A stretch of DNA of 64,000 nucleotides. Source: Gammaproteobacteria bacterium. GTDB lineage: Bacteria > Pseudomonadota > Gammaproteobacteria > UBA4575. The position numbers and the translations under genes were made by a program. The notes beneath the pieces are model-generated. The model was not told the DNA's origin, did not search any database, and worked only from the letters and a program-made list of their open reading frames with translations. Each line of letters opens with the position of its first letter. The stretch's first letter is position 1. The stretch lies in the NCBI GenBank assembly GCA_965247265.1, contig OZ252002.1, positions 1,882,964 through 1,946,963 of the forward strand. The letters run 5' to 3'. Shown one piece after another: positions 5,888-51,990 of this stretch.

Positions 5888-7997
5888 TTACTCAACAATA
5901 ATTACATCAGAATCAGAAGGTATAGAAACGTTTTCAACTTCAACTTCTTCTAATTCAACATTTTGACCATCTTCAACAGGCATGGTTTCAACTACAGGTG
6001 TTAGTTCTAAAAGTTGATCAACCGATACAGTTGGGCTTACCGAACCGCCGCCAGGTATTTGTGTAACGAGTTCATCAAGATCGGGGAATAATGTTGCACC
6101 TTCTTTAATTAGGCCGCGATCATCAAGTTTTGCATCTAATTGTCTGGCTTGGAGATACTTATACTTAGAATTGGTTGCTAAGCTGCCTAGAGCTTCATCA
6201 CGAATAATAATTGGATGAATAAACACCATTAAGTTTTGTTTATCTTTTGTTGTGGTTGTAATTTTGAACAAGTGCCCTAACAGCGGTATGTCGCCTAATA
6301 ATGGAACCTTTTGTACTACGTCACGATATGTATCTTCAATTAATCCACCTAACACAATTGTTTGCTGGTCTCTTACAAGCACACTTGTTTTTATTGCGCG
6401 TTTATTTGTAATCAGATCGGTTGCAACAGTTGAACTCGACAGGGTAGAGGCTTCTTGTTCAATATCTAGCTGGACACTATCTCCTTCATTAATTTGGGGC
6501 GTAATGCGCAACGTTATCCCTACATCTTGACGCTCAATGGTTTGAAACGGATTAACAGAGGTATCCGTACCAGATCCTGTGTTGGTGAATGAGCCTGTTA
6601 CAAACGGAACATTTTGAGCAACCACAATTTCAGCCTCTTCGTTATCAAGTGTCAAAATAGAAGGTGTTGATAAAATATTGGTCGCCGCATCTACTTCTAA
6701 GGCGCGTAATATCGCTGCCCAACGATCTTTACCACTTCTCTTTGCAGCGCCAGCAAAAAAACCATTGCCAATCCCTGTAATCGTATCGACAACTTCATCT
6801 GCAAAAAGACTGGGCAAAGTAAGATTGCTGTCCAGAAATCCAACAGCGGGAGTACCACTTCCTGATCTGTCTGTGGGCACATATGCAAATTGGAAACCTA
6901 GGTCTTTGGCAAGGCCTGTGCTGACTTCTGCAATGATTGCATCGACCAAGACTTGTGCACGGCGAATATCAAGTTGTTTGATGATACGGCGCAGACTTTC
7001 GAATTTTGCAGGGGATGCGGTAATAATTAATGCATTGGTAGTTTCATCGGCTTGAATATCGACATCTGAATTTTGAGCAAATGTTGTGACAGTTCCACCT
7101 TGTTGCTGTTCGCCTTGGGCTTCAAATTGAGTAATGCCCAGTAATATGGGTGCAAGCTCGGCTGCTTTGGCATACTTTAAGTAGACAACTTGCGAGTTGC
7201 CGCCGCCTTCAAGTGGGGTGTCTAAATGTGCAATTAACCCGCGAATTCTTAAACGTGCTGCGTTATCTCCTGACAACAAAATACTGTTGGAACGTTCATC
7301 TGCTGCAAGCGTAGCTTGACCCGGCACTTGTCCACCTTGTGCGTCTTTACGGTTAAGTGAATTGATAATTTGTACCACTTCATTTGCGGACGCGTGTTGA
7401 AGTGGCACGACTTCAATTTCTTGGCTATAGGGCCGGTCGATACGACCAATAATTGTAATTAAGCGATGTATATTTGCAGCACGGTCTGAGATCACGAGCA
7501 CATTACTACTAGGGTAGGCTGCGAGATGCCCTTGTTGAGGAACAAGGGGGCGTAGAATAGGTACCATCTGAGCAAGCAGGTACATTCTTTATAGAAATAA
7601 CGCGTGTGACGAGCTCATCACCGGTGCCTTGCTAATCACCACTCGCTGTTGCAACAGGTCCTTGCTTAGCATTTACATCTGGTAGGATTTTTACAATTTC
7701 ACCTACTTGTACTGCTGCATAGCCATGAACTTGTAAAACGGAGAGAAATACTTGATACACCTCTTCACGGTCCATGGGTCGTGCAGATATCACAGTGGCC
7801 TTAGCTTTTACGCGAGGATCTACTACAAAGTTTCTATCTGTAGCCGCCGCAACCGTTTCTATAAATGATCGTATATCGGCATCTTTGAGATTCAGCGTCA
7901 CACCTGTTTCAGCAAGCGATGTACTGAAAATTACAAAACATGCAGTAGCAATGCATATTAATTTACAAATCTTAGATTTTAAAAACATATATTTCAT
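5888..7997 (-). pseudogene. gspD: Type II secretion secretin GspD, disrupted by an in-frame TAG plus a frameshift between the N0 and N1 domains
   Basis: ORF 7632-7997 encodes a signal peptide plus secretin N0 domain (VTLNLKDADIRSFIETVAAATDRNFVVDPRVKAKATVIS). It ends at a TAG, after which the same frame continues GDELVTRVISIKNV. The body of the secretin (5888-7585, 565 aa, N1-N3 and secretin domain) is in another frame. Confidence 0.8.
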
Positions 7998-8148
7998 ATA
8001 GTTATGGCATTTTATTAAGATAAAATGGTATGAATAATGTATTGCCGTGCGATATACCCTTACTTAAAGTAAGCAAAGTATTTATACATGATATTTCCTT
8101 ATAAGACATAACGTTAAATCTCTGTGATCAGTATTCCTAGACTAACGG

Positions 8149-9039
8149 CTATTGAGTTAAATCCTGAAACAGTGTCAATTCAGTTCCTTCACGAATAACA
8201 ACCATTGTAATCTCATCGGCAGTGGCTAGCGTTTGTAGCGCTTTGGGACCCTTATCGGGTTGATCCAAAGGGATACCATTAAAATTGATGACAACGTCAC
8301 CAGGTTGGAAGCCCAGCGCATAAAACATATCTGGATTTTTACTTGGGATGACCTTGTAGCCTTGGAATTCACCGGTTTCTTCATTTTTCTCAGGTGTAGC
8401 ACGGATGAATTCAGTGAGTCGAGTTGGGTTTTTCATGACTTCTTGGCGAAATTGCCCGAGTGATTCAAAGTCACCACGAGCCTGTGTTGCCTGTGGTTGT
8501 GGTGTGGATCGAGGCGTTGCTACAGGCTCATTTCCAAAACCCTTGGCATTCGCTTTAGGCAGGCGCAGCGTTTCCATGCGAATATCGCGCTCTAAAATAA
8601 CACGGTCGGGATACACAGCATGCAATGTTGCACCACCAGGAATATCATCACCGAGTGAATAGTGTTTTACCTTGTTTGCCCCGCTTGAAATAATGGCATA
8701 GCCATATTCTTTATTACCAGCCAGGACACCTAATAATTTTAGGTTCAGTGTTGTGTCAGGCGCGTTCTCCACTTTTTTAGATGCATTGGGTATGACTTTT
8801 CCCATGATGTGCATTTGAGCAACATTGCGATCATAGTTTGGCCGGGGTTGTGGCTTAGCAGGGTTGGTGGCTGCTGTTGGGGCTGTAGCCGTAACTGTAT
8901 CGACGCCTGAATTAAAAAAGCTCAAAAATACCTTTACCAAAGTGATAATAATTAAGGCAATTAAGGCTAGATTAACCAGACGTGGTAGCTTCGTCTCTAT
9001 TTGAGGCCAAAGCGTATTAAATGAAGCCGCGAATTCCAT
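8149..9039 (-). CDS. gspC: Type II secretion protein GspC (N-terminal TM, C-terminal PDZ-like domain)
   Basis: 296 aa. TM helix near the N-terminus. The C-terminal region GFQPGDVVINFNGIPL...EITMVVIREGTELTL is PDZ-like. Lies upstream of gspD. Confidence 0.65.
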   Translation of the reverse strand: MEFAASFNTLWPQIETKLPRLVNLALIALIIITLVKVFLSFFNSGVDTVTATAPTAATNPAKPQPRPNYDRNVAQMHIMGKVIPNASKKVENAPDTTLNLKLLGVLAGNKEYGYAIISSGANKVKHYSLGDDIPGGATLHAVYPDRVILERDIRMETLRLPKANAKGFGNEPVATPRSTPQPQATQARGDFESLGQFRQEVMKNPTRLTEFIRATPEKNEETGEFQGYKVIPSKNPDMFYALGFQPGDVVINFNGIPLDQPDKGPKALQTLATADEITMVVIREGTELTLFQDLTQ

Positions 9040-9202
9040 AAAATTTAGTCGTTTGCGTCCTTATTTCCTGACTATGATTTTTCAATTAGGATTAGAGTTA
9101 TAAAATGTTTCATTTTACTTGACAGCAAAACCATGGTTAGCGTAACTTGCGCCGGCTCTAATGATTAAGTATTTCCCTAACCGAGTTAACTTTTTCACTA
9201 TT

Positions 9203-9278
9203 GTCCCCATCGTCTAGAGGCCTAGGACATCGCCCTTTCACGGCGACAACAGGGGTTCGAATCCCCTTGGGGACGCCA
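9203..9278 (+). tRNA. tRNA-Glu (anticodon UUC)
   Basis: gtccccatcgtctagaggcctaggacatcgccctTTCacggcgacaacaggggttcgaatccccttggggacgcca. Near-identical in architecture to the E. coli tRNA-Glu cloverleaf, anticodon loop CTTTCAC. Confidence 0.9.
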
Positions 9279-9384
9279 ATAAAATCAATAATTTATAATA
9301 ATATCCAGCTCTATAATTCAAACACGGGTAATAAACGGGTAAATTTCCCGATTTATTATTTCTATTTCTTTAGGCATAAATCGA

Positions 9385-9615
9385 ATGACAGAGCTATTCG
9401 AAAAACTAAAATTTGAGCTCTCAAATAAGTATTACCGCTCTAGACGTAACCTAATACTGGCAAGTTCTTTCGCAATTTTTTGTCTTCTTGCGGATGTTTC
9501 TCGCAATGAGATAAGACCAGGTTTCTCAGCAGTAGCAGTGATTGGACGAGAATTTATGATTCCTGTATTTCTTATCGTAATAATTTCCTATTTCTGGTTT
9601 TGTCCTGCCCTCTAA
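9385..9615 (+). CDS. hypothetical small membrane protein
   Basis: 76-aa ORF with a hydrophobic C-terminal half. No recognisable motif. AT-rich and lies between the tRNA and the IS remnant. Confidence 0.2.
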   Translation: MTELFEKLKFELSNKYYRSRRNLILASSFAIFCLLADVSRNEIRPGFSAVAVIGREFMIPVFLIVIISYFWFCPAL

Positions 9616-9689
9616 ACTTGAATCGGTTTTGAATGCGAGACTTTCATAAATAGTCCTTCCCCAAAAGCTGGGCCAGGCTTTATGCGACA

Positions 9690-10815
9690 TTCTGACTTAA
9701 ATTTGCCTGTTTTTCTGCCCGTTCCCGGTGCGCTTCAGCGAAAACTCCACCGGTGTTTTGTAACCCAGCTGGCTGTACGGCCTTTCGTGATTATGCATCT
9801 CTCTCCATCGGTAAATCTTGATCCGTGCATCGTCCAAAGACAAGCACCAGTTCCGGTTCGAACATTCCAGCCTCACACGGGCATTCAATGCCTCGATCAA
9901 CGCATTGCCCGCGGGCTTTCCAGGGCGTGATAAGTCCAGCGTCACACCGTTGGCATAGGCCCACAAGTCCACTTCTTTCGACACGAACCCCAGGCCACTG
10001 TCGTCTGCTCCCTGAATCGTACGCGGGATCTCGTACTCCCGGGTAGCCCGCTCCAGGGTGTGTACCACATCATAGCCCGTATACCTGCGGCGCACCTCCA
10101 TCGCAGGACTTACACGAGTAAAGTGATCCACTATCTTAACACCCTCAGCCTCTGGCCATCCAAGGTCTGGGCCGCCATACAATCCATGCTCCAGCAGTCA
10201 TTCTGGAAACGGACCGGGGTAATACGTGCTTTCCGCAGTTTCTCCTGCACTCGCCGCCGTGGGCGTTTGTGCCGCACCTGCAGCCCCATCTCGCAGTACA
10301 ATCGATAGACCTGCTTGCGACACTGACCGCCCACAGCCTTCCCGACGTAACAACGCATGTATGCGTAGATACCCGTACCGGGTGCGGGTGGGTCCGCGCA
10401 ATGTCCCGGATCCGCTACTTCAATGCCACCTGTTCCACCTTGCGTGACCGGTACAGCCAGGTCTATCGCGGCAAATACACCCCCTCGCAAGCCCGCCTGG
10501 CACTCACCCCAAAACCATCCATCCACCCGGCGCGCCAACTCCCTCATGCGCGCAGGCCTTAAAGCTTTTTTCGGATCACCTCCTACAGCATGTGACGGTC
10601 CAGGCTCAAGTCCGCCACCCTCTGCTTCAATCAATGGTTCTCAACCTCCAGCTTCTTCAACCGGCGTACCTCTGAAGACGCCAATCCCCCAAACTTCTTC
10701 TTTCACCGGTAACATGTCTGCTCCGAAATCCCCACCTCCGTGACACCCATACCGCCCTCATGCTGGTGCAGCGCATAGGCAATCTGCTCCTCGCTAAACT
10801 GCGACTTCTTCATGC
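9690..10815 (-). mobile_element. Degraded IS3-family insertion sequence (orfA/orfB remnants with multiple frameshifts and stops)
   Basis: The minus strand from 10812 encodes MKKSQFSEEQIAYALHQHEGGMGVTEV..., an IS3-family OrfA HTH start, interrupted by stops. The ORF at 10131-10634 and the ORF at 9697-10182 carry the IS3 OrfB integrase-core (DDE) homology (…KTPVEFSLKRTG). The element is GC-rich relative to the flanks. Exact ends are not determined. Confidence 0.75.
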
Positions 10816-11258
10816 AAAAACATCCTTCCCCTACAAGGACATCTTAACGAGATTTTTCGCACTATGCCTGGTTCAGTTTACGGGGAGAAGACCAATCATC
10901 ATCTTTTTCCTGTTCTTAGATTTGTGTCAGATTCTGGGTTTACCCACAAGAAGAAGCTTTTATGTTCATGGGCAGCATTACAATGCTCAAGACATACGGC
11001 CTGCACAATGGGTTTAGACCTAAATTGCCGATCACATTTGTCAGTGATGATTGGAACGTTGTTTTCGTGTGCCTTGGTCCATGCTCCTGAATTTCGCAAT
11101 AAAATTTTTCTGGGGCAATTCAGTTGTGAACAATGCCTTTTTATTTACTTTCCTCCTTGTAGCGAGTTTGCTCTGAGCTACATCCAATATTTGTGGTAGC
11201 CTTTAATATGTAAAGGTGTACAGTACACCGCACACCAATCCGGGAAAGTCAATATATT

Positions 11259-12359
11259 ATGCAGATGCTACCGCTAGCTATTGCCCTAGCCGCCAGCTCT
11301 GTATTTGGCTTTGCTGGCTTTGAGGCGGATGCCGCCTCAAAAACAATTGAGATTGATGGTGAAACCGTTGCATGCGTCGACCGGACTGTGCAATCCCAGA
11401 TGGCGGTTGTAGACGCCCACGTACATTTTCGCCCGTTCGGCGGCAAGGCTCTGCCGTTTGAGGAGGTAGTTCAGTATCTTGAAAAAGCTGGTGTACGATT
11501 CGTGACTGTATATGGTATCGGCCAGATGCTACCAGTGTCATCATCATGTACATACTATCTCGACTGTCCCGGAACACCGGTAATGCCTACTTTAAAGAAT
11601 GACTTTTTTAACGCCGTCAATTACATCACTAAGGGTTCAGGTACGGTCCACATAACATTATCTATGAGTTTCCCAGACCTCACCCAGCCGGAAACTGTGC
11701 TCGATGGTATACGGTTGCTGGATAAGGAGTTTCCTGGGGTGTTCAAGTGGATGGGTGAAGTCAACCTGGTTAAGCAGGCGCTCTTTGGTAATCACCGTCT
11801 TGCCGTTCCCATGACTAAGATTGAGAAATGGGCACCGTTCATGGCTGAACTGCGCAAACGCGACATGCCTATCTCCATTCACTCGGACCTGGGAAGTAAC
11901 GAGGAACCAACTCGTTACTTGCCTTGGATCGAAGAGGTGTTGCGTCTGTACCCTGACAACAAGATCATCTGGATGCATCTTGGTTTGTCGCGGGAACTTA
12001 CCATAATCGACGTCAACAACCATATCGCGGTTCTGCAGTCGCTACTAGACCGCTATCCAAATCTGATGCTTGACATTGCTTGGCGAGTGATTGATGACAA
12101 CTACTTCTCAGACCCCAAGTTACGTGTGCAGTACGTGCCGTTCCTGAACACCTACTCTGACCGCATTTTACCCGGATCAGACTTTGTTGCGTCCATCAAT
12201 AAGAACTTCGAGGTGTATCAGGAGGAACTTGAAGTCACCAGTCGGATTATCCGCTACCTCGATAACGATGCGTTCCGGAATATTGCCCTCGGCGAGAACT
12301 ACTTCAGGCTGCTTGGTCTAGATGAGAAAGCACCTGTAGTGTGCTCTCGCCCTGATTGA
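11259..12359 (+). CDS. secreted metal-dependent amidohydrolase (amidohydrolase-2 / TIM-barrel hydrolase family)
   Basis: 366 aa. Signal peptide. HxH metal motif VDAHVHF near the N-terminus of the mature protein, with later His and Asp residues typical of the family. GC-richer than the surrounding DNA. Confidence 0.7.
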   Translation: MQMLPLAIALAASSVFGFAGFEADAASKTIEIDGETVACVDRTVQSQMAVVDAHVHFRPFGGKALPFEEVVQYLEKAGVRFVTVYGIGQMLPVSSSCTYYLDCPGTPVMPTLKNDFFNAVNYITKGSGTVHITLSMSFPDLTQPETVLDGIRLLDKEFPGVFKWMGEVNLVKQALFGNHRLAVPMTKIEKWAPFMAELRKRDMPISIHSDLGSNEEPTRYLPWIEEVLRLYPDNKIIWMHLGLSRELTIIDVNNHIAVLQSLLDRYPNLMLDIAWRVIDDNYFSDPKLRVQYVPFLNTYSDRILPGSDFVASINKNFEVYQEELEVTSRIIRYLDNDAFRNIALGENYFRLLGLDEKAPVVCSRPD

Positions 12360-12514
12360 AGTCGATTCACTCAAAATTGCTGCACAAGTTTGGACCCATA
12401 AACTTGCTATGTTAAATGACTGACTTGATACATCTCATACCCACACACCCTTAAAATGATTAATATTTGTACAGATGTATAATGGCGAAAGCCGTTTAAA
12501 ATCAGTCAGATAGT

Positions 12515-17323: not shown

Positions 17324-18510
17324 ATGCATAAAACACTTCTAATACTATTAATTTCAATACTTTGTTCGGCATGTGCAAGTATTAGTCGTGGCATTACTGA
17401 AGGCGTACTTAGTAGTAAAAATCAGGACTTAGTGGATGAGCGCGAATGCAATATACGCGGAACTAAATTTGATGGTCTCGATTCATCTTTTAATACACAA
17501 GGGAAAAGCCCTACATTAAAAGTATTAATGGTGCATGGTATTGGTGAGCATCTTCCCGGGTATTCAACCCGCATGGCTGAAAATTTAGCAACAGCCTTAA
17601 ATTTAAATGTTGGGAGCGCACGTTTTAAAGAAATTGACATAGTAGCAGGCCGATTTCCAAATGAAAATCTTGGAAAATTACGTATTGACCGTTACATAAA
17701 TCAGGAAGAGTCACAAGAAATGCTCTTTTATGAGCTGACTTGGTCGCCAATTGCTAAAAAAGAGAAAGATATTCTTGCCTATGATAACTCTGGTGAACAT
17801 TCGTTTCGTCGTGCCAACATTAACAACATCATGAAACCTTATATGAACAGTCATGTATCGGATCCACTTATTTATCTTGGTGCATCGCAAGAAAAAATAC
17901 AGGTATCTGTCATTACTTCAATATGCTGGATGATGAGCCGCGACTGGAAAGAAATCGATGAACATACACAAGGGCGGTGTGTAGCCGAACACACCAAATA
18001 TAATAAAGTATTAGATGATGAATTTGCTTTTATTACTCACAGCATGGGGAGTCGAATCGTCACAGATTCTTTTCAGGCGCTAATTCAGTACTTAGATAAT
18101 GAATTACAAACCAATTGCCGCTATTACAACTTGGCCGTGATAATCCTGAAGTGACCAATCAACATGAGGAATATTGTATGTCGGATGGAGAAAATTATGA
18201 CAAACGTTTCTTCAAAGAACTTACCGTTGTGGCATTTAGTGACCCGAATGACATAGTAAGTTATGACGTGCCACCCAAATTTGTTGATGAATATATGGAT
18301 TCCAGGCTATGCGTGAACTTAATTAACATCACAATAAATATCGCGCACGTAAAAGAACTTTTTGGATTAGGCTCATTCGCTAACCCATGTTTCGCACATC
18401 GACAATATGATAATGATGAGCGGGTAGTCGGAATTATTTCACACGGGCTACACGATCAGAATATTGCAGCTGTAGTAAAAGAACGCTGCGAATATCAAGA
18501 AACGAGATAA
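17324..18510 (+). pseudogene. Lipoprotein alpha/beta-hydrolase (lipase-like, GxSxG = THSMGS), frameshifted
   Basis: ORF 17324-18154 has a lipobox LCSAC and the nucleophile elbow ITHSMGSRIV. ORF 18115-18510 in a different frame carries candidate Asp and His catalytic residues (DPNDIV, HGLHD). Confidence 0.5.
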
Positions 18511-18718: not shown

Positions 18719-19333
18719 ATGTCTAGTGCACCCGAATCAATTTCCCCTAATTCCTGCGACATGGAAGCCTTAAATCAATGGTTTGATGAACGATTAGAGC
18801 AAAAGCTGCAGGAACGAGACGAAGCAAAAATTCCGCAACTTTCATTGATTGTCACAAAAGGCACAATGGATATGGCGTATCCGCCCTTTATTCTGGCTTC
18901 AACCGCTGCAGCGTTAGATTGGGAAGTATCCTGTTTTTTTACCTTCTATGGCTTAAATTTACTTAAGAAAAACCTTGATCTAGAAATTTCCCCACTGGGT
19001 AATCCTGCTATGCCAATGAAAATGCCATTTGGACCTGATTGGTTTCAGAACATTAAATGGGATATACCGAATGCGTTAAGCAGCAATATCCCAGGATTTG
19101 AAAAATTTGCGACCACAATGATGAAGCAAACGCTTAAAAACAAGGGTGTGGCAAGTGTTCAGGAGTTACGCGAGCTAAGCGTTGAAGCCGATGTAAAACT
19201 CATCGCTTGTCAAATGACGGTAGATTTATTCGGTTATAGTAAAGATGAGTTTATTGATGATGTGTCTGAATGGGTAGGTGCAGCTTCATTTTTACCTGCC
19301 GCTCAAAAGTCTGATATCTGCTTGTTCATTTGA
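18719..19333 (+). CDS. DsrE/DsrF-like (DsrE2-type) sulfur-transfer family protein
   Basis: 204 aa. Motifs TMDMAYPPFILASTAAA, FFTFYGLNLLKK and conserved Cys in IACQMTVDLFG match the DsrE2 family signature (FFTFWGL...C-x-M). Confidence 0.6.
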   Translation: MSSAPESISPNSCDMEALNQWFDERLEQKLQERDEAKIPQLSLIVTKGTMDMAYPPFILASTAAALDWEVSCFFTFYGLNLLKKNLDLEISPLGNPAMPMKMPFGPDWFQNIKWDIPNALSSNIPGFEKFATTMMKQTLKNKGVASVQELRELSVEADVKLIACQMTVDLFGYSKDEFIDDVSEWVGAASFLPAAQKSDICLFI

Positions 19334-19893
19334 ACAAAGTATTTTTTTCTATTTGTTGCGCACTGTTTTTGTGTTCATTGGTCCATGGAGAAGATATTGA
19401 TGAGCAACTCTTTGCTAGTAAAGACGCCACGCAACACCTTGCTCGCCAACTAAGAAGCAAGCTGATAAGCAGCTTAGAAGAAAGTGGTGCGGTTAATTCA
19501 ATCAGTGTATGCAATACAGAAGCTTTTAAAATATCAGCGGAGTTGTCTAAAAAATATAACGGCAAGGTCAGCCGCACTTCATTAAAAATTCGCAATCCAG
19601 AGAATAAACCCGATACTTGGGAACGTAACACGCTATTAGAATTTGAAAATCAGAAACAAGCAGGTACCGATACTTCTCAATTAGAATCATATAAGGTCAT
19701 TAAAAATGATAACGGAAAATGGTTTCGCTATTTGAAAGCCATTCCAACCGGTGATGTGTGTTTAATGTGTCATGGTGAGCATATTGCACCGGATGTTGAA
19801 GATAAAATAAAGACTTTATATCCAAATGATTTAGCAACAGGTTATGAAGTAGGGGACATTCGCGGTGCGTTTACCATCAAGCTACGCATGTAA
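19330..19893 (+). CDS. Secreted c-type haem protein, DUF3365 (Tll0287-like PAS-fold) family
   Basis: 187 aa. Signal peptide and a single C-terminal CLMCHG haem-binding motif, as in DUF3365 proteins. Confidence 0.6.
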   Translation: MNKVFFSICCALFLCSLVHGEDIDEQLFASKDATQHLARQLRSKLISSLEESGAVNSISVCNTEAFKISAELSKKYNGKVSRTSLKIRNPENKPDTWERNTLLEFENQKQAGTDTSQLESYKVIKNDNGKWFRYLKAIPTGDVCLMCHGEHIAPDVEDKIKTLYPNDLATGYEVGDIRGAFTIKLRM

Positions 19894-19916
19894 TTTGCTT
19901 TTGTTTTAATACATAA

Positions 19917-19943
19917 AAGAAGGGGCTCTAAGAGCCCCTTTTT
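19917..19943. terminator. Bidirectional rho-independent terminator between convergent genes
   Basis: aaaagaaGGGGCTCtaaGAGCCCCttttt. 7-bp GC stem with flanking A- and T-runs on both strands. Confidence 0.65.
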
Positions 19944-19963
19944 AATGTGATATTGTTAAATAG

Positions 19964-21247
19964 TTATCCAAACATTTCTGCAGTCATGTTGTTAAACCAG
20001 CTGTAAGCATAGTGCACTTCTCGCTTACGTGCTTCTGCTGACGCATCTGCTGGAGTAAGTCCTCCACCGAGTTTCTCAATCGCTGAACGATCACCTTTAA
20101 GCTTGTACACCGCAACAACGGATATGCCGTAATCAGGTGCAATTATGCTGTAACAAGCATTTGCATAGGATGGTGTTGGTGGCTCTTTGCCGTTTAACAT
20201 ACTCACAACGGCTGCTGCACAAACTTTCGCTTCTGTACTGGCAGCATAACCCGATTTTGGAAGACCAGTTGCAATACTTGCATCACCGATAACATGAATA
20301 CCTTTATGTTTTTTGGATTCAAATGTTCCAAGATCAACTGGACACCAACCCGAATCATCAGTAAGGCCTGCATCGATAGCAATTTGCGCTGCATTTTGTG
20401 GTGGAATGATATTGGCAACTGCTACTTTATAGTCATCAAAATCTGTGCTGACCGTCATATCTTTTGTATTTACACGTTTAACACCACCACCCGTATCTGC
20501 GCCGGCAACCCATTCAATCATGTCCCCATAAACATCTTTATAGCCTTGCATGAACAATCCTTGCTTAGAAAATTTATCTTTTGCATCAAGGATCATAATT
20601 TTTGATTTAGGCTTGTTGTGTTTCAAATAATGTGCAATTAGTGCAGCACGCTCATAGGGTCCTGGAGGACAGCGGAATGGATTTCCTGGTGGAGCTAAAA
20701 CGACTAGGCCTCCATCATCCATAGCTTCGAGCTGACTTCGCAACAATGCAGTTTGTGCACCAGCAATCCATGCATGAGGCATAACTTCAGAAGCTGCTTC
20801 ATCATAACCTTCAATTGCACCCCACTTGAATGCAATACCAGGTGACATTACTAAACGGTCATATTCAAGCGTAGTACCACCGGCAGTGGTTATTTTTTTG
20901 CTTTCTGCATCAATGGCTGTGGCTTTGTCTTGTACAAGCTTAATACCATGATCTGCAAGTTTATCGTAGCCAAATTTGATGGTTGAAATATCGCGATCAC
21001 CACCAATTACTTCATTACTCATAAAGCATGTATGATGATGTGCTTCTGATTCTACGATTGTCACTTCTGTAGAAGAATCTCCCTTAGCAATATACTTCGC
21101 GGCAATCATTCCACCTACACCACCACCAATTACAACGACACGATGTTTTGCTGCACAGGCGATATGTGGGAAACCAAGACCTACAGTAGTAGCGGCAAAA
21201 CTACTGCCCGTAACTTTTAAAAATTCTCTTCTTGTAACTTTCGACAT
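19964..21247 (-). CDS. fccB: Flavocytochrome c sulfide dehydrogenase, flavoprotein subunit
   Basis: 427 aa. Tat signal RREFLK. FAD dinucleotide-binding motif VVVIGGGVGGMIAAKYI. Lies directly upstream of a dihaem cytochrome gene. Confidence 0.85.
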   Translation of the reverse strand: MSKVTRREFLKVTGSSFAATTVGLGFPHIACAAKHRVVVIGGGVGGMIAAKYIAKGDSSTEVTIVESEAHHHTCFMSNEVIGGDRDISTIKFGYDKLADHGIKLVQDKATAIDAESKKITTAGGTTLEYDRLVMSPGIAFKWGAIEGYDEAASEVMPHAWIAGAQTALLRSQLEAMDDGGLVVLAPPGNPFRCPPGPYERAALIAHYLKHNKPKSKIMILDAKDKFSKQGLFMQGYKDVYGDMIEWVAGADTGGGVKRVNTKDMTVSTDFDDYKVAVANIIPPQNAAQIAIDAGLTDDSGWCPVDLGTFESKKHKGIHVIGDASIATGLPKSGYAASTEAKVCAAAVVSMLNGKEPPTPSYANACYSIIAPDYGISVVAVYKLKGDRSAIEKLGGGLTPADASAEARKREVHYAYSWFNNMTAEMFG

Positions 21248-21277
21248 TTTTATGACTCCTAACTTAAACCTGTGCGA

Positions 21278-21943
21278 TCAATTTTGATTGCCATAGAACT
21301 GAATTAAATCAACAGTAGCCCCTTCTTTATGTGCCTCATGCATTTCTTCCATTTTCTTTTTCATCTTCTTAGGCATGGCTCTGTTACCATCGAAATAATC
21401 AGCCATGGTGTAGTCTAGATAGGGCAGCCATTGACCTGCTAAAACACCTGCATCGTCTTCTGCAGATCCTCCACCATCTTCATGGCACTTTTCACAAAAT
21501 TTATCATGTCGTTTTGCGCCGGTTTTTGCTTTACCAGCATCGGCATCTTGATCTGCTGTTTGAAACGGCATTTCAGCAAAGTGTTTAGCAATAAGCTTAA
21601 GTTCTTCTACTGAATAACCCTGTGCAATTCGATTCATTACTGTTGAAAATCTGGGGAAATATTCTACCTCTTCAAGATCTGGATCAGCTTCAATGGCTTC
21701 TTCAGCTTTATCTTCATCGTCACCAAATTTATATGCCAACATTGCGCCAATAATATAAATTTCAGACATTCCAGATATTGTAGGTATTGCTGGTCCTTCG
21801 CTGACCCCGCTTGGTCCATGACAACCCAGGCAGGTGTTTGAAAGCATAGATGGGCTCGCTGTCCCTTCAGCCCATGCAGTATTCAGAGATAATAATCCAA
21901 TTACACTTAATATAAGTGATTGACGGATGAGTTTGTAAAACAT
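21278..21943 (-). CDS. fccA: Flavocytochrome c dihaem cytochrome subunit
   Basis: 221 aa. Signal peptide. Two CXXCH motifs (CLGCHG, CEKCHE). Adjacent to fccB. Confidence 0.7.
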   Translation of the reverse strand: MFYKLIRQSLILSVIGLLSLNTAWAEGTASPSMLSNTCLGCHGPSGVSEGPAIPTISGMSEIYIIGAMLAYKFGDDEDKAEEAIEADPDLEEVEYFPRFSTVMNRIAQGYSVEELKLIAKHFAEMPFQTADQDADAGKAKTGAKRHDKFCEKCHEDGGGSAEDDAGVLAGQWLPYLDYTMADYFDGNRAMPKKMKKKMEEMHEAHKEGATVDLIQFYGNQN

Positions 21944-22056
21944 AGCTGTCCTCCGCTTTGAGTTAAATTCTTGTTATGTCTTTTATTTAACTGATTTTTA
22001 ATTCTTATTTATAAATGTTAACACAGTAATTTATTGGCTTTTAGAGCTGATTTCAT

Positions 22057-22596
22057 TTACTTTTTAAACGCAACTTCTTCTTCTAAATACGGTTCATCGG
22101 GCTCTTCATGAGCAACACCTTTATGGCAATCGATACAGGTTTTGCCGCTAGTTTCTATTTTTTTGTGTTTTTTGCGTGCTGATCTGTCCTGTTCTTCTAA
22201 ATCCATCGCTGCTACCGTGTGGCAAGACTTGCATTCACGAGAATCCGTAGCTTCCATACGATTCCATACTGCATTCGCCATTTGCCAGCGATGGTCTTCA
22301 AATTTTTCTTCAGTATCGATGGTACCCAGAATTTCATGCCAAACATCTTTTGCAGCGCGAAGTTTTGCATAGAGTTTAGGGCCAAGATTATGCGGCACAT
22401 GACAATCTGAACAATTCGCGCGAACACCTGAAATATTGGAATAGTGGAGGCTTTCCATCCATTCTTGTTTTACCCATTGCATGGAATGGCAAGACGTACA
22501 AAAATCTGTTGAATTAGTGGCTTCCAATGAAAGAGATGATCCTATAGCCGCAGCAAATCCTACAATCAACATCAATACGATAACTATTATTTTCAT
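22057..22596 (-). CDS. NapC/NirT/CymA-family membrane-anchored tetrahaem cytochrome c
   Basis: 179 aa. N-terminal TM helix. Four CXXCH motifs (CTSCHS, CSDCHV, CKSCHT, CIDCHK) with family-typical spacing. Confidence 0.8.
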   Translation of the reverse strand: MKIIVIVLMLIVGFAAAIGSSLSLEATNSTDFCTSCHSMQWVKQEWMESLHYSNISGVRANCSDCHVPHNLGPKLYAKLRAAKDVWHEILGTIDTEEKFEDHRWQMANAVWNRMEATDSRECKSCHTVAAMDLEEQDRSARKKHKKIETSGKTCIDCHKGVAHEEPDEPYLEEEVAFKK

Positions 22597-23033: not shown

Positions 23034-24350
23034 ATGAAACCATTAATAATACTGTTATTCGTAATCGGATTTGGAATCTGGATGATTGCTACAGGGTCTG
23101 CAGATATTTTTTTAACTACCACAGACTCATCTGCTGAAGTCGTCAGTGAGGACAGCAGCAAAGAATCAAGCATTACAGATAATGCTGAGCCTATTCAAGA
23201 AATAGAAAGCTCAACGCTTGAAGAGATTAGCGCTGAGACTTTATTAGTGGCAGAAAATGATGTCATTGAAAATGACTCAGAAAGTATAAATGAAGCTCAA
23301 TATTCTGAAAAAGACACATATAATACTAAAAATACCTTAGCAGAGGATGATTTAGATTCACTGGGTTCTGATACGAGTGAAGTAACTGATGAGCCAACTA
23401 TTGTTGCAGAAGCTAATACTGCTGCAGAAACTACTACAACTGAATCAAACCAAGAATCTTCAGATAGCACGCCATCAACAACAATCCCGCCCACTAATCC
23501 ACATTTGGGTAGTATGTGGATGTCGCCTATGCAAAACCCCATGAATAATTTTTGGATGAATCCAATGTTCAATATGATGATGCAGATGATGGGGCCTATG
23601 ATGAATCCCGCAATGTATATGAATCCCATGAGCATAATGAATCATCCCATTAATGCCATGACCCAAGCGCAAAGCATGGATTACATGATGCGCTCAATGG
23701 ATCCACATTTACTATTTGGAATGTTTGGACAAACAAGTGAAGGCTATAAAAACGGTGAAGTGCCTGACCAACTTCCAGTCGTCACAATCCCCGGATTTCC
23801 TACTCAAACTTATCAAAATTGGCCTAGAAATAAAGTATCTCCTGGTGTTTCGCGCGAAGCTAAGAAAAACGCATTTCAAACAATGATGGGAATAAGCCCG
23901 CTTTCCATGCGAGACATGCTAGGAATAATTACGGATAAAGTTCCTGTTGCGGAAGATGTCACTTGGGATGATGCCGTTGAAGCTATGAAACTTCGCGCCA
24001 ATGAAGTTAATTTTAAATTTGTCGGATCAAGCCCCCTATGGAAAGAAATTGAAGCCGTTACTGGCGAGCCTTCAGCACGAGTTGAGATGTTTCGGTTCTG
24101 TGATGCTGCCGTGGCACGAAAGATTTTAGATGAAATCCCAGAGTTTATTGTGTTTCTTCCCTGCAAAATTGCGTTGATTGAAGATGGAGATGGAAAACTT
24201 TGGGTCATGACACTTGATTGGGATGTGAGTTGGTTGGACTTTGCACAGAATCCGAATAATCATTTAGCAAAGGATTTACGTGAAGACGCAACACGAATTA
24301 GGGAAAACATGCGCTACATTATGGAAGGGGCCGCAACCGGTGACTTTTAG
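23034..24350 (+). CDS. Secreted modular protein: signal/TM, acidic Ser/Thr/Glu-rich linker, Met-rich NPM-repeat segment, C-terminal DUF302 domain
   Basis: 438 aa. The Met-rich block is SMWMSPMQNPMNNFWMNPMFNMMMQMMGPMMNPAMYMNPMSIMNHP...SMDYMMRSMDPH. The C-terminal FRFCDAAVARKILDEIPEFIVFLPCKIALIEDGDGKLWVMTLDWD matches the DUF302 (TT1751-like) motif (CNP..A...LPC..V). Confidence 0.6.
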   Translation: MKPLIILLFVIGFGIWMIATGSADIFLTTTDSSAEVVSEDSSKESSITDNAEPIQEIESSTLEEISAETLLVAENDVIENDSESINEAQYSEKDTYNTKNTLAEDDLDSLGSDTSEVTDEPTIVAEANTAAETTTTESNQESSDSTPSTTIPPTNPHLGSMWMSPMQNPMNNFWMNPMFNMMMQMMGPMMNPAMYMNPMSIMNHPINAMTQAQSMDYMMRSMDPHLLFGMFGQTSEGYKNGEVPDQLPVVTIPGFPTQTYQNWPRNKVSPGVSREAKKNAFQTMMGISPLSMRDMLGIITDKVPVAEDVTWDDAVEAMKLRANEVNFKFVGSSPLWKEIEAVTGEPSARVEMFRFCDAAVARKILDEIPEFIVFLPCKIALIEDGDGKLWVMTLDWDVSWLDFAQNPNNHLAKDLREDATRIRENMRYIMEGAATGDF

Positions 24351-24411
24351 TGAGTGTTATTCATATTCATAAACTTATATTTGAAAACTATACACGACAG
24401 AGGTAATTAAA

Positions 24412-25101
24412 ATGTTCTTACGACAAAAGTTAATCCAATTATTTGCGGGTGCATTGATAATTGTTATTGCAGGTGCCACGAGCTTACAAGCAGAAGATGC
24501 GAGCTCTGCATCTACAGGCATGACACCTGCCATGCAAAAGGCCATGGACCCAAATGTTTGGACAAACATGATGGCAATGATGATGAATCCAGAAAAGGCA
24601 ATGTCTATGGAATCGTGTGCAGAATGTCATGACGGTGAAGATGTGGCGCGCTATCAAAAAGATTTTGGCCCAATGATGGAAGCCATGAAGCCAATGATGA
24701 GTATGATGAATCCTCATATGATGACCTCCATGATGAACCCTATGATGGGCATGATGAACCCTATGATGGGCATGATGAACCCTATGATGGGCATGATGAA
24801 CCCTATGATGGGCATGATGAACCCTATGATGGGTGGCATGATGAACCCTATGATGGGTGGCATGATGAACCCTATGATGGGTGGCATGATGAACCCTATG
24901 ATGGGTGGCATGATGAACCCCATGACCATGATGAACATGATGTATCCGATGATGGGAATGATGGGCCCAATGATGGGAATGGGTGGCATGGGTAATCCAA
25001 TGATGGGTGGCAACCCAATGGGACAAATGATGGACCCTAAACAATATGAGAATTGGTTTAACGAAATGATGAAAGGCTTTACACCACAAGCACAAAAGTA
25101 A
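24412..25101 (+). CDS. Secreted methionine-rich tandem-repeat protein with one CXXCH motif
   Basis: 229 aa. Signal peptide, then SMESCAECHDGEDV (CXXCH), then MMNPMMG x5 and MMNPMMGG x4 repeats. Shares the MDPNVWTNMM and C-terminal QYENWF motifs with the two neighbouring genes. Confidence 0.6.
   Translation: MFLRQKLIQLFAGALIIVIAGATSLQAEDASSASTGMTPAMQKAMDPNVWTNMMAMMMNPEKAMSMESCAECHDGEDVARYQKDFGPMMEAMKPMMSMMNPHMMTSMMNPMMGMMNPMMGMMNPMMGMMNPMMGMMNPMMGGMMNPMMGGMMNPMMGGMMNPMMGGMMNPMTMMNMMYPMMGMMGPMMGMGGMGNPMMGGNPMGQMMDPKQYENWFNEMMKGFTPQAQK
24730..24935 (+). repeat. Intragenic tandem repeat: about five 21-bp units followed by about four 24-bp units
   Basis: atgatgaaccctatgatgggc is repeated about 5 times, then atgatgaaccctatgatgggtggc about 4 times, all in frame. 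Confidence 0.9.
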
Positions 25102-25134
25102 TCAGATAATATTCTCTATCTACTATCAAACAAT

Positions 25135-25650
25135 ATGGGCGTAAAAAAATTACTTACACAAGCAATTTTTGTAGTGCCCATCTTGGCCATTATTACAGTG
25201 CCGGTGATATTGCATTTTAAAAGTCAAAGTACTACGCCAGCAGAGAATAATAATGCTGGCCCAACTTATCAAAACAATCTTTCTACACACAGTTTCACAA
25301 ATACAATTTCTTCTGCTCAGGCATATGATAAATTCGCAATTCCTGAACCATTCTCTGCTGCAAATTCAACTTTAGGGCTGACGTATGCCATGACTAAATC
25401 CATGGATCCGAATACGTGGATGAAGATGATGATGAATATGATGAATCCAGCCATGATGACTCAAATGATGCACCAGATGATGCAAATTCCCACTAAAATG
25501 ATGGTGCCTTTCATGAATAATGGATTCAGTATGGGCCCGGCTATGTTACCGCAATCACATGCGATGGGCTCTGCACCAAATATAATGACCCCTGCACAAT
25601 ATAAAGATTGGTACACAAAGCAACAGAATAAGCTTAACAATGTCAAATAA
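25135..25650 (+). CDS. Secreted methionine-rich protein, paralogous to the two upstream genes
   Basis: 171 aa. N-terminal TM/signal. SMDPNTWMKMMMNMMNPAMMTQMMHQMMQIP block. C-terminal PAQYKDWY resembles PKQYENWF of the preceding gene. Confidence 0.5.
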   Translation: MGVKKLLTQAIFVVPILAIITVPVILHFKSQSTTPAENNNAGPTYQNNLSTHSFTNTISSAQAYDKFAIPEPFSAANSTLGLTYAMTKSMDPNTWMKMMMNMMNPAMMTQMMHQMMQIPTKMMVPFMNNGFSMGPAMLPQSHAMGSAPNIMTPAQYKDWYTKQQNKLNNVK

Positions 25651-25814
25651 CAGTATTAGCAAATTATACTGGTTAAATAATTATTAACTATAACGTGCAT
25701 GAATTTTTTGCTCTTACTTTGATCATGCGCTACACAAAATTTATTGGTTCAATGTACATAATATTAAGCACTGGTATAATCCGCCAGCTTTATTGACGCA
25801 CTTTAGAATATTAC

Positions 25815-26960
25815 ATGGAAGAATTGTCTAACCTTCATTTAATCGCCTTACTAGGCTTTGTGATAGCTATGGTGTTTGGCTTTATTGGAAATAAAACCCA
25901 CTTTTGTTCCATGGGAGCGATAAGTGATGTGGTGAATATGGGTTCAAAAGGACGTTTAGGCGCTTGGTTTTTAGCAATAGGCGTCGCAATTTTAGGTGCA
26001 CAGTTTTTGTTCATACGTGGATTGGTAGATCTGAATTCATCAGTTTATCTTGCACCAAATTTATACATATTAAGTTACATCCTTGGTGGAATAATATTTG
26101 GCATCGGAATGACCCTGGCGGCAGGCTGTGGACAGCGCAATTTGGTTAGGCTGGGAGGCGGAAACTTAAAAGCGCTTGTTGTTGTCATTGTTTTAGGTGT
26201 GACCGCATATATGACAATGCGCGGAATTTTGGCAGTGGTACGTTTAAATTGGGTGTATGCCGTGAACTCTGATTTGACTACGTATGGAATTAATGACCAA
26301 GGCTTATTTAGTTCCCTTGGTGCATTATTTAATCTTGAAAATACTAACTTGCTCAGAAAAATTGGTGGATTCTTAATTGCGTTTGGTTTTATTGCCTATG
26401 CATTTAAACAAAAAGAATTTAGATCAAGTGTTGACAATATGCTAGCTGGATTTGTAATTGGTGGATGCGTCATTGCCGCATGGTTTGTAACAGGTTATAT
26501 CGGTCAGGACGACTTTGATCCAGTTACTCCTCAAGGCATGGCATTTATTGGGCCAACGGGTAATACAATAAGCTATTTAATGACATTTACAGGTGCCGAA
26601 ATTAATTTCGGTATCGCCGTTGCAATGGGGATGATTGCAGGTTCATTTTTGTATGCAGCTCTTTCTGGTAACTTCCGTATTGAAACATTCAGCAATAAAT
26701 CTGAAATGGTAAGTCATTTAATTGGTGCGGTATTGATGGGATTTGGTGGTGTACTTTCATTCGGATGCACCATAGGGCAGGGTGTGACGGGAATGTCTAC
26801 GTTAGCAATGGGATCTATTTTAGCGTTGATCTCTATTATTTTTGGATGTGCGCTTACAATGAAGATTCAATACCACATGCTGGACGAGAAGGGATTTACA
26901 GTTGCATTAGTATCTGCACTAAAAGAGTTACTTACACCTTGGAATAAAGAAGCTGCTTAG
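25815..26960 (+). CDS. YeeE/YedE-family sulfur-compound (thiosulfate) transporter
   Basis: 381 aa, polytopic. Two internally repeated halves, each with a conserved Cys-containing G-C-x-x-G region (AAGCGQRN, SFGCTIGQG). Confidence 0.8.
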   Translation: MEELSNLHLIALLGFVIAMVFGFIGNKTHFCSMGAISDVVNMGSKGRLGAWFLAIGVAILGAQFLFIRGLVDLNSSVYLAPNLYILSYILGGIIFGIGMTLAAGCGQRNLVRLGGGNLKALVVVIVLGVTAYMTMRGILAVVRLNWVYAVNSDLTTYGINDQGLFSSLGALFNLENTNLLRKIGGFLIAFGFIAYAFKQKEFRSSVDNMLAGFVIGGCVIAAWFVTGYIGQDDFDPVTPQGMAFIGPTGNTISYLMTFTGAEINFGIAVAMGMIAGSFLYAALSGNFRIETFSNKSEMVSHLIGAVLMGFGGVLSFGCTIGQGVTGMSTLAMGSILALISIIFGCALTMKIQYHMLDEKGFTVALVSALKELLTPWNKEAA

Positions 26961-26987
26961 TAAAACGAGAATATAAGCATCTATCTT

Positions 26988-27302
26988 TTATTTTATTTCT
27001 GCTTCGCCGCTGCCTGACTCACCTTTATTGTCTGTCCAGGTGATTTTGACAACATCACCCGCTTTACCACCATCAAATTCAAATGACCAGTAAGGGTTTT
27101 TTGAAATTCCTGTTCCCCAGTCTGCAGAGATAATCACTTCGCCATTTAATTCTGCTTTAACTTCTTTAATAAAATGGGCAGATATTAGCTCACCCGTGTC
27201 TTTGTCTTTTCGACTACCAGATTCCATTTCGTGATACATAATAGTTTTAACAGTTGTCACGCCATCTTTAATTTTTGCTCTAATTTTCATTTCTTCAGCC
27301 AT
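26988..27302 (-). CDS. soxZ: Thiosulfate oxidation carrier protein SoxZ
   Basis: 104 aa. SoxZ-like sequence and size. Lies immediately downstream of soxY. Confidence 0.85.
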   Translation of the reverse strand: MAEEMKIRAKIKDGVTTVKTIMYHEMESGSRKDKDTGELISAHFIKEVKAELNGEVIISADWGTGISKNPYWSFEFDGGKAGDVVKITWTDNKGESGSGEAEIK

Positions 27303-27321
27303 CGAATTATTCCTTCATCTT

Positions 27322-27780
27322 TTATACACAACCGCCAGCAGTAACTTTAACAACACTCTTGCTAGCGTATAACTTGCCGTCAGCTTTAACGATGGCAACT
27401 ACATTAGATGTTTCACGCAATTTAATGCGAGTTGATACAAACGGTTTAGATTTTCCATGAAAATAAAATCGTGAAATCCAAGGTCTTGGATTTTTATCTC
27501 CAAATATACTAATCCACTCTACATTCCCTAAATCTGTTGAAACTTTTACCGGTACGGTTGCACCATTTTCAGCGATTTCGGGTGCATCTAGTGTTACATG
27601 CCCATCAAGTAATTCCTGATCGCCTACGAGCCCTTTTAAGGATGCTTCATATTCTGTCTCGTCAAACGCCGCAGAAGGCCATTCTGCGATCGCAACGCGA
27701 GAAAGAATTCCAGTACTTAATGCTGCAAAGAGACTTGTATAAGCACTATGTTGAATAAATTTTCTTCGTGAAATTTTCAT
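27322..27780 (-). CDS. soxY: Thiosulfate oxidation carrier protein SoxY
   Basis: 152 aa. Tat/Sec signal MKISRRKFIQHS. C-terminal ...VTAGGCV with the carrier Cys in a Gly-Gly-Cys context. Confidence 0.8.
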   Translation of the reverse strand: MKISRRKFIQHSAYTSLFAALSTGILSRVAIAEWPSAAFDETEYEASLKGLVGDQELLDGHVTLDAPEIAENGATVPVKVSTDLGNVEWISIFGDKNPRPWISRFYFHGKSKPFVSTRIKLRETSNVVAIVKADGKLYASKSVVKVTAGGCV

Positions 27781-47998: not shown

Positions 47999-48011
47999 TC
48001 CTCCGTAAACA

Positions 48012-49139: not shown

Positions 49140-49283
49140 AAGGGGCAACTTTTGGGGCTACTCGCAAATTGAAAACTACACATTTCATTGAATATCAAAT
49201 ATTTATATAACTAACTCGATTGATGCTAGATCAACAACATATACCACATAAGTTCGAATTAAGAGACTAAAGGAGCAACTAAA

Positions 49284-49605
49284 ATGACTGAAAAACTCGA
49301 ACTCTCAAGAGGCAGCGGCAATGTATTCCGTGATTTTGGTTATGCAAATGCAGATGTTGAACAACTTAAATCACAACTGGCCGCAGAAATTATCCGTGAG
49401 CTTGATAAAAAAAGCTTTGTCTGTACGAAAAGCTGGCACTTTAACCGGCTTTGCAGCTGCTGATATCTCACGAATTCGCAAAGCCGACCTTGGCCGTTTT
49501 ACCATCGATAGACTGGTAAAACTTTTAGGCCGGTTAAATCGCAAAGTTGAAATTAAAGTTTCCCATATGCTTACGGCTGAAGCTGACGCACATGCGAGCG
49601 CTTAA
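49284..49605 (+). pseudogene. HigA-like XRE-family antitoxin/regulator, frame broken at an A7 run. No toxin partner present
   Basis: MTEKLELSRGSGNVFRDFGYANADVEQLKSQLAAEIIRELDKK in frame 1, continuing ...SVRKAGTLTGFAAADISRIRKADLGRFTIDRLVKLLGRLNRKVEIKV in frame 2 after gataaaaaaagc (49407-49413). Confidence 0.55.
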
Positions 49606-49701
49606 TAAAATTCAATACTAACTGCCACCAGAAAAACGTGTTATTTTCCGTAAAAAACATTATCCGACAATATTAAACAGAAGTATTTATTTTGTAACTA
49701 A

Positions 49702-51980: not shown

Positions 51981-51990
51981 TTAAAATCTC

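Follow-up and report, generated by a model that had tools for sequence, protein, structure and literature searches.

The fcc locus of the phototroph Allochromatium vinosum, the closest described counterpart of the genes treated here, was reportedly cloned by Dolata et al. in 1993 (J Biol Chem 268:14426). What flavocytochrome c does in vivo, and to which acceptor it passes its electrons, has been debated for decades, and a comparative survey from 2019 stated that the neighbours of fccAB are not conserved. According to the supplementary tables of a transcriptome study from 2024 (PMC11267869), the gene order in A. vinosum is Alvin_1095 for a NapC/NirT-type protein, Alvin_1094 for an 'Ankyrin' protein of 320 aa with a signal peptide, Alvin_1093 for FccA and Alvin_1092 for FccB. 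On pyrite compared with sulfide these genes were induced 42-, 28-, 175- and 72-fold, respectively, with flanking genes unchanged, and the function of Alvin_1095 was called unresolved by the authors (PMC11267869). In the searchable literature we found no paper treating napC-like and fccAB genes as one functional unit. Here, we analyze a stretch of 64,000 nucleotides from Gammaproteobacteria bacterium (lineage UBA4575; contig OZ252002.1, positions 1,882,964 to 1,946,963), in the following termed the window, in which a napC-like tetrahaem cytochrome gene, fccA and fccB occur in the same order and on the same strand as in A. vinosum. The original prediction for this DNA had suggested a non-canonical electron route for sulfide oxidation. 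The observations behind it were confirmed throughout, its interpretation in part. The term non-canonical is not supported: the A. vinosum fcc locus shows the archetypal form of the arrangement, and dihaem-type fccAB occurs in no other context more often. Though little discussed, the pairing has been known since 1993; it is real and functional, canonical among dihaem flavocytochromes, and present in the window as an ankyrin-less variant.

The three genes reside on the minus strand. The napC-like gene (22057-22596, 179 aa) is followed by an AT-rich spacer of 113 nt (21944-22056) with a strong Shine-Dalgarno sequence, GGAGGA, for fccA, by fccA itself (21278-21943), which encodes the dihaem cytochrome c subunit of flavocytochrome c (221 aa, Sec signal peptide), and, after a gap of 30 nt, by fccB (19964-21247) for the flavoprotein subunit of sulfide dehydrogenase (427 aa, Tat signal). 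They face a plus-strand pair of dsrE2 and a tll0287-like gene, making two convergent units with five genes in all. Open reading frame (ORF) calls, Pfam and NCBIfam confirmed the originally given positions of all five genes, and a napC-fccA distance given as about 110 nt was measured as 113 nt. Neither the fold (z = +0.9) nor a terminator scan revealed a terminator-like hairpin in the spacer, and a spacer length of 110-145 nt recurs among relatives. In a spacer alignment from nine loci a regulatory element was not found; what is common to them is the fccA Shine-Dalgarno sequence and a short stretch 3' of the napC stop codon. One weak promoter-like match is present in the spacer. As such matches are rarer in the region than expected from shuffled sequence, the promoter scan is uninformative, and there may be an internal promoter ahead of fccA. 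All three proteins face the periplasm, the NapC-like protein by its membrane anchor, FccA by its Sec signal and FccB by its Tat signal. Judged from their common strand and their conservation, napC-like, fccA and fccB form one operon-like unit; the same-strand grouping noted originally is a real conserved unit with no terminator between its genes.

The resemblance to A. vinosum extends to the proteins. The first three haem motifs of Alvin_1095 are spaced by 29 and 60 residues, identical to those of the window protein, FccA and FccB from the window match the crystal chains at E = 4e-37 and 1e-142, and the NapC-like protein groups with proteins from ankyrin-type loci, including one from a Chromatiaceae metagenome-assembled genome (MAG). 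Alvin_1095 itself was not among the top 120 matches of a homology search seeded with the Chromatiaceae sequence; from its annotation, its motif spacing and the Chromatiaceae relative we infer that it belongs to the same clade of NapC-like proteins. The window differs from A. vinosum in that it lacks the ankyrin gene, only 113 nt separating napC-like and fccA, and in that its FccA bears a 22-residue acidic insertion which is lacking in FccA from ankyrin-type loci.

This clade was delineated by a homologue scan with the NapC-like protein as query and one genome per species, which provided 80 loci (labels such as L001 denote loci of relatives and metagenomes as numbered in the present analysis). 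Within these, each homologue with more than ~53% identity adjoins fccA-fccB, a periplasmic ankyrin-repeat gene or both, and homologues with 52% identity or less mostly lie within napAB(GH) operons. In a neighbour-joining tree (85 sequences, rooted with E. coli TorC, 300 bootstraps) the fcc- and ankyrin-linked proteins constitute a clade of 22 sequences including that from the window (bootstrap 286/300), apart from 34 NapAB-linked NapC sequences, among them E. coli NapC. The 34 canonical NapC genes adjoin napAB; none of the 22 clade members does. The sister group of the clade is formed by proteins from dihaem plus NapC-like loci of Gallionellaceae, Sideroxydans and Nitrosomonadales.

The window protein yields 222 bits with PF03264 (gathering score 24.1), the match covering residues 3-167, and it features an N-terminal membrane helix at residues 3-21 (KD19 = 2.65) and four CXXCH motifs at residues 33, 62, 122 and 154. 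It stays below the NCBIfam cut-offs for both the NapC equivalog (NF007906, 192 vs 349) and the NapC/NirT subfamily (TIGR02161, 213.7 vs 310.6). The nearest solved structure is NrfH (2j7a_C), with which CTSCHSM (CXXCHxM), Lys78 and Asp84 align, the latter two as equivalents of K82 and D89; they are conserved in the clade. In NrfH, CXXCHxM together with Lys82 and Asp89 is what we take to be the quinone site. Residues that are invariant in NapAB-linked NapC are replaced in the clade, namely Arg by Ala77, Glu by Asp84 and Glu by Ser38. On these grounds, and notwithstanding the database name 'cytochrome c-type protein NapC' carried by homologues, the gene in the window is classified as something other than a canonical napC. 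The C-terminal tail of the tetrahaem proteins in the clade has a mean net charge of -5.9 vs -1.2 in canonical NapC. Despite this significant difference, the acidic tail was dropped as a docking signature, because not all clade members have it; it is absent from L001 and L002.

A reductase that could be served by the NapC-like protein was sought in the 64-kb window. By tblastn with E. coli NapA, NapB, NapG, NapH and TorA no match was obtained, and Pfam detected no reductase domain among the window ORFs of at least 375 aa, which upholds the earlier statement that the window holds no Nap, Nir, Tor or Nrf reductase. Nor does a reductase partner occur at any fcc-linked locus.

FccB contains the domains PF21706 (163 bits), PF09242 (84 bits) and PF07992, matches 5n1t_A and 1fcd_A at about E = 1e-142 (structures of sulfide:quinone oxidoreductase, SQR, at E ~1e-12), and carries its Tat signal RREFLK at residue 6. 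The motif cysteines C74 (TCFMSN), C193 (FRCPPG) and C365 (NACYS) are present; they presumably correspond to Cys42, Cys161 and Cys337 of 1FCD, i.e., to the site of covalent FAD attachment and the redox-active cysteine pair. FccA matches 1fcd_C at E = 3.9e-37 and 3vrd_A at 7e-33 and has the haem motifs CLGCH and CEKCH. Its nearest curated family is PdsA, a periplasmic dihaem shuttle, for which it scores 112 bits, below the cut-off. By domains, cysteines and the adjacent dihaem subunit FccAB is identified as a flavocytochrome c sulfide dehydrogenase (FCSD). The acidic insertion of FccA (DDEDKAEEAIEADPDLEEVEYFPR) comprises 22 residues in the first haem domain (approximately residues 76-99). It is present in all nine FccA proteins of the ankyrin-less subclade, which unites the window with L001-L006, L081 and L083 (bootstrap 277/300), and in none of 11 other aligned FccA proteins from ankyrin-type or unassigned loci. 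Because all nine form a single clade, the correlation of the insertion with the absence of ankyrin counts as one evolutionary event, and it is speculation that the insertion replaces the role of the ankyrin protein.

The survey of fccAB neighbourhoods that had been proposed along with the original prediction was carried out from both sides. Seen from the NapC-like protein, fccAB is a neighbour of 18 of the 22 clade members (fccB in the flanking DNA examined) vs 0 of the 34 canonical NapAB-linked NapC genes. Linked genes were found in uncultured Gammaproteobacteria, Thiotrichales, Chromatiaceae, Sedimenticolaceae and Ca. Poriferihabitaceae, furthermore in endosymbionts of Escarpia (tubeworm) and Solemya (clam) and in the alphaproteobacterium Thermopetrobacter, so that the arrangement is conserved in relatives across Gamma- and Alphaproteobacteria. 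The outcome named originally as refuting the prediction, absence from all relatives, is thereby contradicted. The flanks of the unit vary: L083 has ccm and mfd there, L086 and L087 have hemerythrin, and close relatives have DUF302/Tll0287; the trio therefore travels as a block.

Seen from fccB, metagenomes were scanned for the motif FRCPPGPYERA, a sample that is unranked by similarity to the window. Of the 112 fccB loci retrieved, 42 extended upstream by 2.6 kb or more, and eight of these 42 include a NapC-like gene, all of them among the 11 loci with A. vinosum-type dihaem FccA (8/11, vs 0/31 of the others; Fisher p = 1.4e-6, uncorrected for relatedness). Three of the eight (L185, L190 and L200) contain a protein from another NapC-family lineage (bootstrap 200/200), nearest (~52% identity) to NirT/NapC-like sequences, and an EB_dh-domain monohaem gene stands where the ankyrin gene would be. 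This second, independent association of a NapC-family protein with fccAB argues for function and against mere inheritance. The three loci, all on high-GC metagenome contigs, represent a third form of the locus, in which the NapC-family gene is followed by a gene for a 313-aa EB_dh-domain protein with one CXXCH, fccA and fccB (L200, 4650-8193).

FccA-like dihaem genes, related to the PdsA family (112-124 bits) but below its cut-off, also adjoin NapC-like genes in places where fccB is lacking, among them clusters from iron oxidizers, making the dihaem protein the likely direct partner of the tetrahaem protein. Such pairs are found beside MtrC/OmcA-like and MtrA-like decahaem genes in L026 and L076 (Thalassotalea, Nevskiales). 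In L020, L022, L043 and L056 (MAGs of Gallionellaceae, Sideroxydans and Nitrosomonadales) their neighbours encode a multihaem protein of ~800 aa, a PpiC-type isomerase and a thioredoxin-like protein.

In most relatives the gene for a periplasmic ankyrin-repeat protein of ~315 aa with a signal peptide is inserted between napC-like and fccA (L007-L009, L014, L016-L018, L028, L086, L087, L107, L127, L140 and L158; e.g., L017, 8534-9499). In five or more loci the ankyrin gene stands beside napC-like with no fccB nearby. No match to it was obtained anywhere in the 64-kb window. L086, from a 5-Mb genome, features the order napC-like, ankyrin, fccA and fccB, directly followed by a second fccA-fccB pair (7746-11974). 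Proteomic work on tubeworm symbionts has taken an ankyrin protein as a host-interaction factor and 'NapC' as a sign of nitrate respiration; at the Escarpia symbiont locus L008 both kinds of gene lie inside an fcc cluster.

The second of the two convergent units consists of dsrE2 (18719-19333, plus strand), encoding a cytoplasmic sulfur-carrier protein of 204 aa without signal peptide, and the gene for a Tll0287-like (formerly DUF3365) periplasmic mono-haem PAS-like protein of 187 aa (19330-19893, plus strand). DsrE2 scores 164 bits with PF13686 and narrowly passes the NCBIfam equivalog NF047629 (215.5 vs a cut-off of 210). The Tll0287-like protein scores 90 bits with PF11845 (cut-off 24.1) and contains a single CLMCH motif. 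Its TTG start codon overlaps the dsrE2 stop by 4 nt (TTGA), as had been stated originally, and is followed by a good signal peptide. The protein matches Tll0287 (5b82_A) at E = 1e-6, and Cys61 (SVCN) faces AVC-A of 5b82_A across a one-residue gap, such that the two cysteines are adjacent and do not share one column. The cysteine of Tll0287 is presumably an axial haem ligand, and from the proximity of Cys61 to it the Tll0287-like protein may be a His/Cys haem sensor. The pair is separated from fccB by a bidirectional intrinsic terminator (19920-19940) between the two convergent stop codons, the hairpin of which has a GC-rich stem of 9 bp (AAGGGGCTC...GAGCCCCTT), T-runs on both strands and a fold of -24.9 kcal/mol (z = -3.9; 0/200 shuffles as stable). 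Both genes stand beside fccB only in the seven closest loci, L001-L005 and L081/82, and are missing from all more distant fcc loci examined. L003 and L004 share the 4-nt overlap, whereas L001, L005 and L081 lack it; in L001 and L005 the genes are 17-36 nt apart, and in L081 and L082 a gene for an Rrf2 regulator separates them. The pair is best described as a convergent, lineage-specific neighbour outside the predicted core unit, and nothing ties the Tll0287-like protein mechanistically to FccAB. The five-gene module of the original prediction is reduced accordingly to three genes and two neighbours, given the strong bidirectional terminator and a pairing with fccAB that is limited to the seven closest loci.

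With regard to the electron route, we favor a scenario in which FccB, exported via the Tat pathway and equipped with covalent FAD and a redox-active disulfide, would oxidize sulfide and pass the electrons to the two haems of FccA, from where they would proceed via the four haems of the membrane-anchored NapC/NirT-family protein to quinone. In this scenario the three proteins would together constitute a periplasm-facing, membrane-attached sulfide:quinone oxidoreductase of three subunits, and its electrons would join the chain at quinone, ahead of bc1 and open to reverse electron flow, and not at cytochrome c. It is reasonable to read the arrangement as linking FccAB with the quinone pool. That the tetrahaem protein hands the electrons from FccAB to quinone, in analogy to cM552 of ammonia oxidizers, has in our estimation an even chance of being correct. 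The present analysis shows gene identities, topology signals and a conserved linkage with co-inheritance, and co-regulation is known from A. vinosum; what we infer is that FccA touches the tetrahaem protein and, more than anything else, that the electrons run towards quinone. Flow from sulfide to quinone appears the most likely direction, because no acceptor enzyme travels with the unit, because the unit is induced together with fccAB in a phototroph on a reduced-sulfur mineral and because a protein of the NapC/NrfH superfamily is proposed to do the same in the hydroxylamine:ubiquinone module. Retention of the residues that align with the NrfH quinone site fits this reading as well. With about -270 mV for sulfide/S0 and about +100 mV for ubiquinone the overall reaction is strongly downhill, and the haems of FCSD, at ~0 mV, are unusually low in potential for class I cytochromes c. 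Several points weigh against quinone reduction by the unit. The haems of the NapC/NirT family are typically low-potential, and the step from FccA to the tetrahaem protein would therefore be uphill. All biochemically tested NapC/NirT proteins (NapC, NirT, CymA, NrfH and TorC) oxidize quinol, and ImoA, long proposed to be a quinone reductase, acted as a quinol oxidase in Shewanella. Flavocytochrome c from A. vinosum purifies as a soluble heterodimer and reduces soluble cytochromes in vitro. A. vinosum fccAB knock-outs show normal sulfide oxidation, a missing phenotype that could be masked by SQR. Four clade members (L010-L013) combine napC-like with the ankyrin gene, and fccB was not seen in the flanking DNA examined, which covered the full 8 kb on either side for L010 and L013; the NapC-like protein may therefore serve other partners. 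Finally, co-transcription in the source organism is deduced solely from the absence of a terminator. The quinol oxidation common to every characterized family member, ImoA included, would suit the opposite direction, in which the NapC-like protein works as an ordinary quinol dehydrogenase and reduces FccA, which then shuttles electrons to other acceptors or drives FccB backwards. The relationship of FccA to the PdsA shuttle family and the NapC-like/dihaem pairs in MtrC/MtrA-type clusters, where outward flow is usual, are in line with this, but no acceptor enzyme is conserved with the unit, transfer from ubiquinol to the low-potential FCSD haems would be uphill, FccB is encoded at 18 of the 22 clade loci and the genes are co-induced with fccAB on a reduced-sulfur mineral, so that we consider the reverse direction unlikely.

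It is also conceivable that the tetrahaem protein performs no quinone chemistry and, with or without the ankyrin protein, holds FccAB at the membrane and wires it to the reaction center, a cbb3 oxidase or bc1. In most relatives the gene between napC-like and fccA specifies a periplasmic ankyrin-repeat protein, a typical scaffold for protein-protein interaction, there are reports of membrane-bound flavocytochromes c, and the C-terminal tail of the tetrahaem protein tends to be acidic. This tail is missing, however, in L001 and L002, and conservation of the NrfH quinone-site residues is unexpected for a pure tether; we therefore give this explanation little credence. Far less credible still is a merely coincidental neighbourhood, in which the gene would belong, as napC or nirT, to a nitrate or nitrite reductase from another part of the genome. 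The database name of the homologues would fit, and the reductase search was confined to the 64-kb window, but the separate clade with its high bootstrap and none of its 22 members beside napAB, the persistence of the fccAB linkage over classes and contexts, and scores below the NCBIfam NapC and NapC/NirT cut-offs have already largely refuted it. A different kind of alternative concerns the extent of the unit, namely that DsrE2 and the Tll0287-like protein work with NapC-like/FccAB as one sulfide-oxidation module. Both genes adjoin fccB in the seven closest loci, the wider island also encodes SoxYZ and a YeeE-type transporter, and Cys61 lies beside the presumed axial cysteine of Tll0287, His/Cys haems being common in sulfur enzymes. 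Against this stand the position of the pair in a convergent unit behind a strong terminator, its absence from all more distant fcc loci, the Rrf2 gene inserted in L081/82, and the location of DsrE2 in the cytoplasm and of FccAB in the periplasm. As the Rrf2 gene or a gap of 17-36 nt intervenes even in some close loci, inclusion of the two proteins is weakly founded and the larger module quite improbable. Returning to sulfide:quinone electron transfer, we suggest, tentatively and with slightly less than even confidence, that dihaem flavocytochrome c in vivo is no free soluble enzyme feeding cytochrome c but provides the catalytic head for a sulfide:quinone redox module of three or four subunits at the membrane (FccB-FccA-[ankyrin]-NapC-like tetrahaem protein), comparable to HAO-c554-cM552.

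The genes on the far side of the napC-like gene (23034-27780) lie outside the unit and encode a DUF302-domain protein, two Met-rich proteins, a YeeE/Sulf_transp membrane protein, SoxZ and SoxY. Together with dsrE2 and the tll0287-like gene they make up a lineage-specific sulfur island; these neighbours recur in L001-L005 and L081/82 and not at more distant fcc loci. The Met-rich proteins (24412-25101 and 25135-25650) are secreted or anchored. In the first, MMNPMMG(G) is repeated in tandem ~10 times, reflecting a 24-nt repeat in the DNA at 24685-24925 (89-97% matches), and one haem motif, CAECH, is present. A 438-aa protein encoded upstream (23034-24350) combines a low-complexity acidic region and a Met-rich stretch with a C-terminal DUF302 domain. 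Apart from DUF302, no family could be assigned to any of the three, and the set is conserved beside the fcc unit in L001-L005 and L081/82. Directly upstream of dsrE2, at 17324-18510, two overlapping ORFs of 276 and 131 aa in different frames lack Pfam matches and may be one frameshift-split gene. Traces of mobile DNA are present in two parts of the window. At 9203-12400, a tRNA gene (9203-9275), which is the only feature reported by Rfam for the whole window, precedes rve-type integrase fragments (9697-10634) and a GC-rich stretch (0.51 vs ~0.38). At 48000-56000, phage-type integrases (48012-49139 and 54993-55985) surround an AAA_13 ATPase (49702-51279), with a low-GC patch of 0.32 at 50-52 kb. 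Two further genes are unusual for a sulfur oxidizer with a small genome, one for a cytochrome P450 (37193-38551) and one, within a GC-rich patch (0.48), for a myo-inositol-1-phosphate synthase (44764-45978).

To a specialist familiar with the A. vinosum locus, the presence of a napC-like gene next to fccAB would come as no surprise; it is the breadth and the specificity of the association that make the question of the FccAB acceptor testable. A dedicated NapC-type clade at most dihaem-type fccAB loci, together with co-induction in A. vinosum, provides a concrete hypothesis, and A. vinosum is a genetically tractable host of a homologous locus. If electrons indeed enter at the quinone level, the energy yield assigned to the FccAB pathway would change. 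If dihaem flavocytochrome c is the head of a membrane-attached module as suggested above, FccAB would gain its long-missing physiological electron acceptor, and the masking of fccAB knock-outs by SQR would be explained. In that case, nitrate respiration or host interaction would have been wrongly read into many 'NapC' and 'ankyrin' calls in genomes and proteomes of thiotrophic symbionts; 'NapC' is the routine name for homologues, and symbiont studies count such proteins as components of nitrate respiration.

Among known systems other than that of A. vinosum, canonical NapC (NapABC/NapFDAGHBC, E. coli b2202) and NirT of nirSTB share with the window protein the Pfam family, the membrane anchor and the four haems, E. 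coli NapC being ~46% identical to it. The window protein differs by its place in a separate clade, the members of which never stand beside napAB, and by replacement of invariant NapC residues. ImoA (Slit_2495) from the Mto Fe(II)-oxidation pathway of Sideroxydans lithotrophicus resembles it as a NapC/NirT-family tetrahaem protein that is encoded in a lithotroph together with periplasmic cytochromes and for which a role in passing electrons of an inorganic donor to quinone has been proposed. Its partner is the monohaem MtoD and not a flavocytochrome, and inward flow should not be taken for granted, since ImoA oxidized quinol when tested in a heterologous host. A further functional parallel is the hydroxylamine:ubiquinone module (HURM; HAO–cytochrome c554–cM552/CycB) of ammonia oxidizers, from which electrons are proposed to enter the quinone pool. 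Both gene sets combine a periplasmic dehydrogenase and a soluble c-type cytochrome with a tetrahaem membrane protein from the NapC/NrfH/cM552 superfamily. The dehydrogenase of HURM is, however, the unrelated octahaem HAO, while that of the window is a flavoprotein. The overall reaction proposed here, transfer of electrons from sulfide to quinone, is that of SQR, and FccB and SQR are homologous flavoproteins. Whereas SQR, a monotopic flavoprotein of the membrane, hands electrons to quinone by itself, the unit in the window would accomplish this with three proteins and six haems between flavin and quinone.

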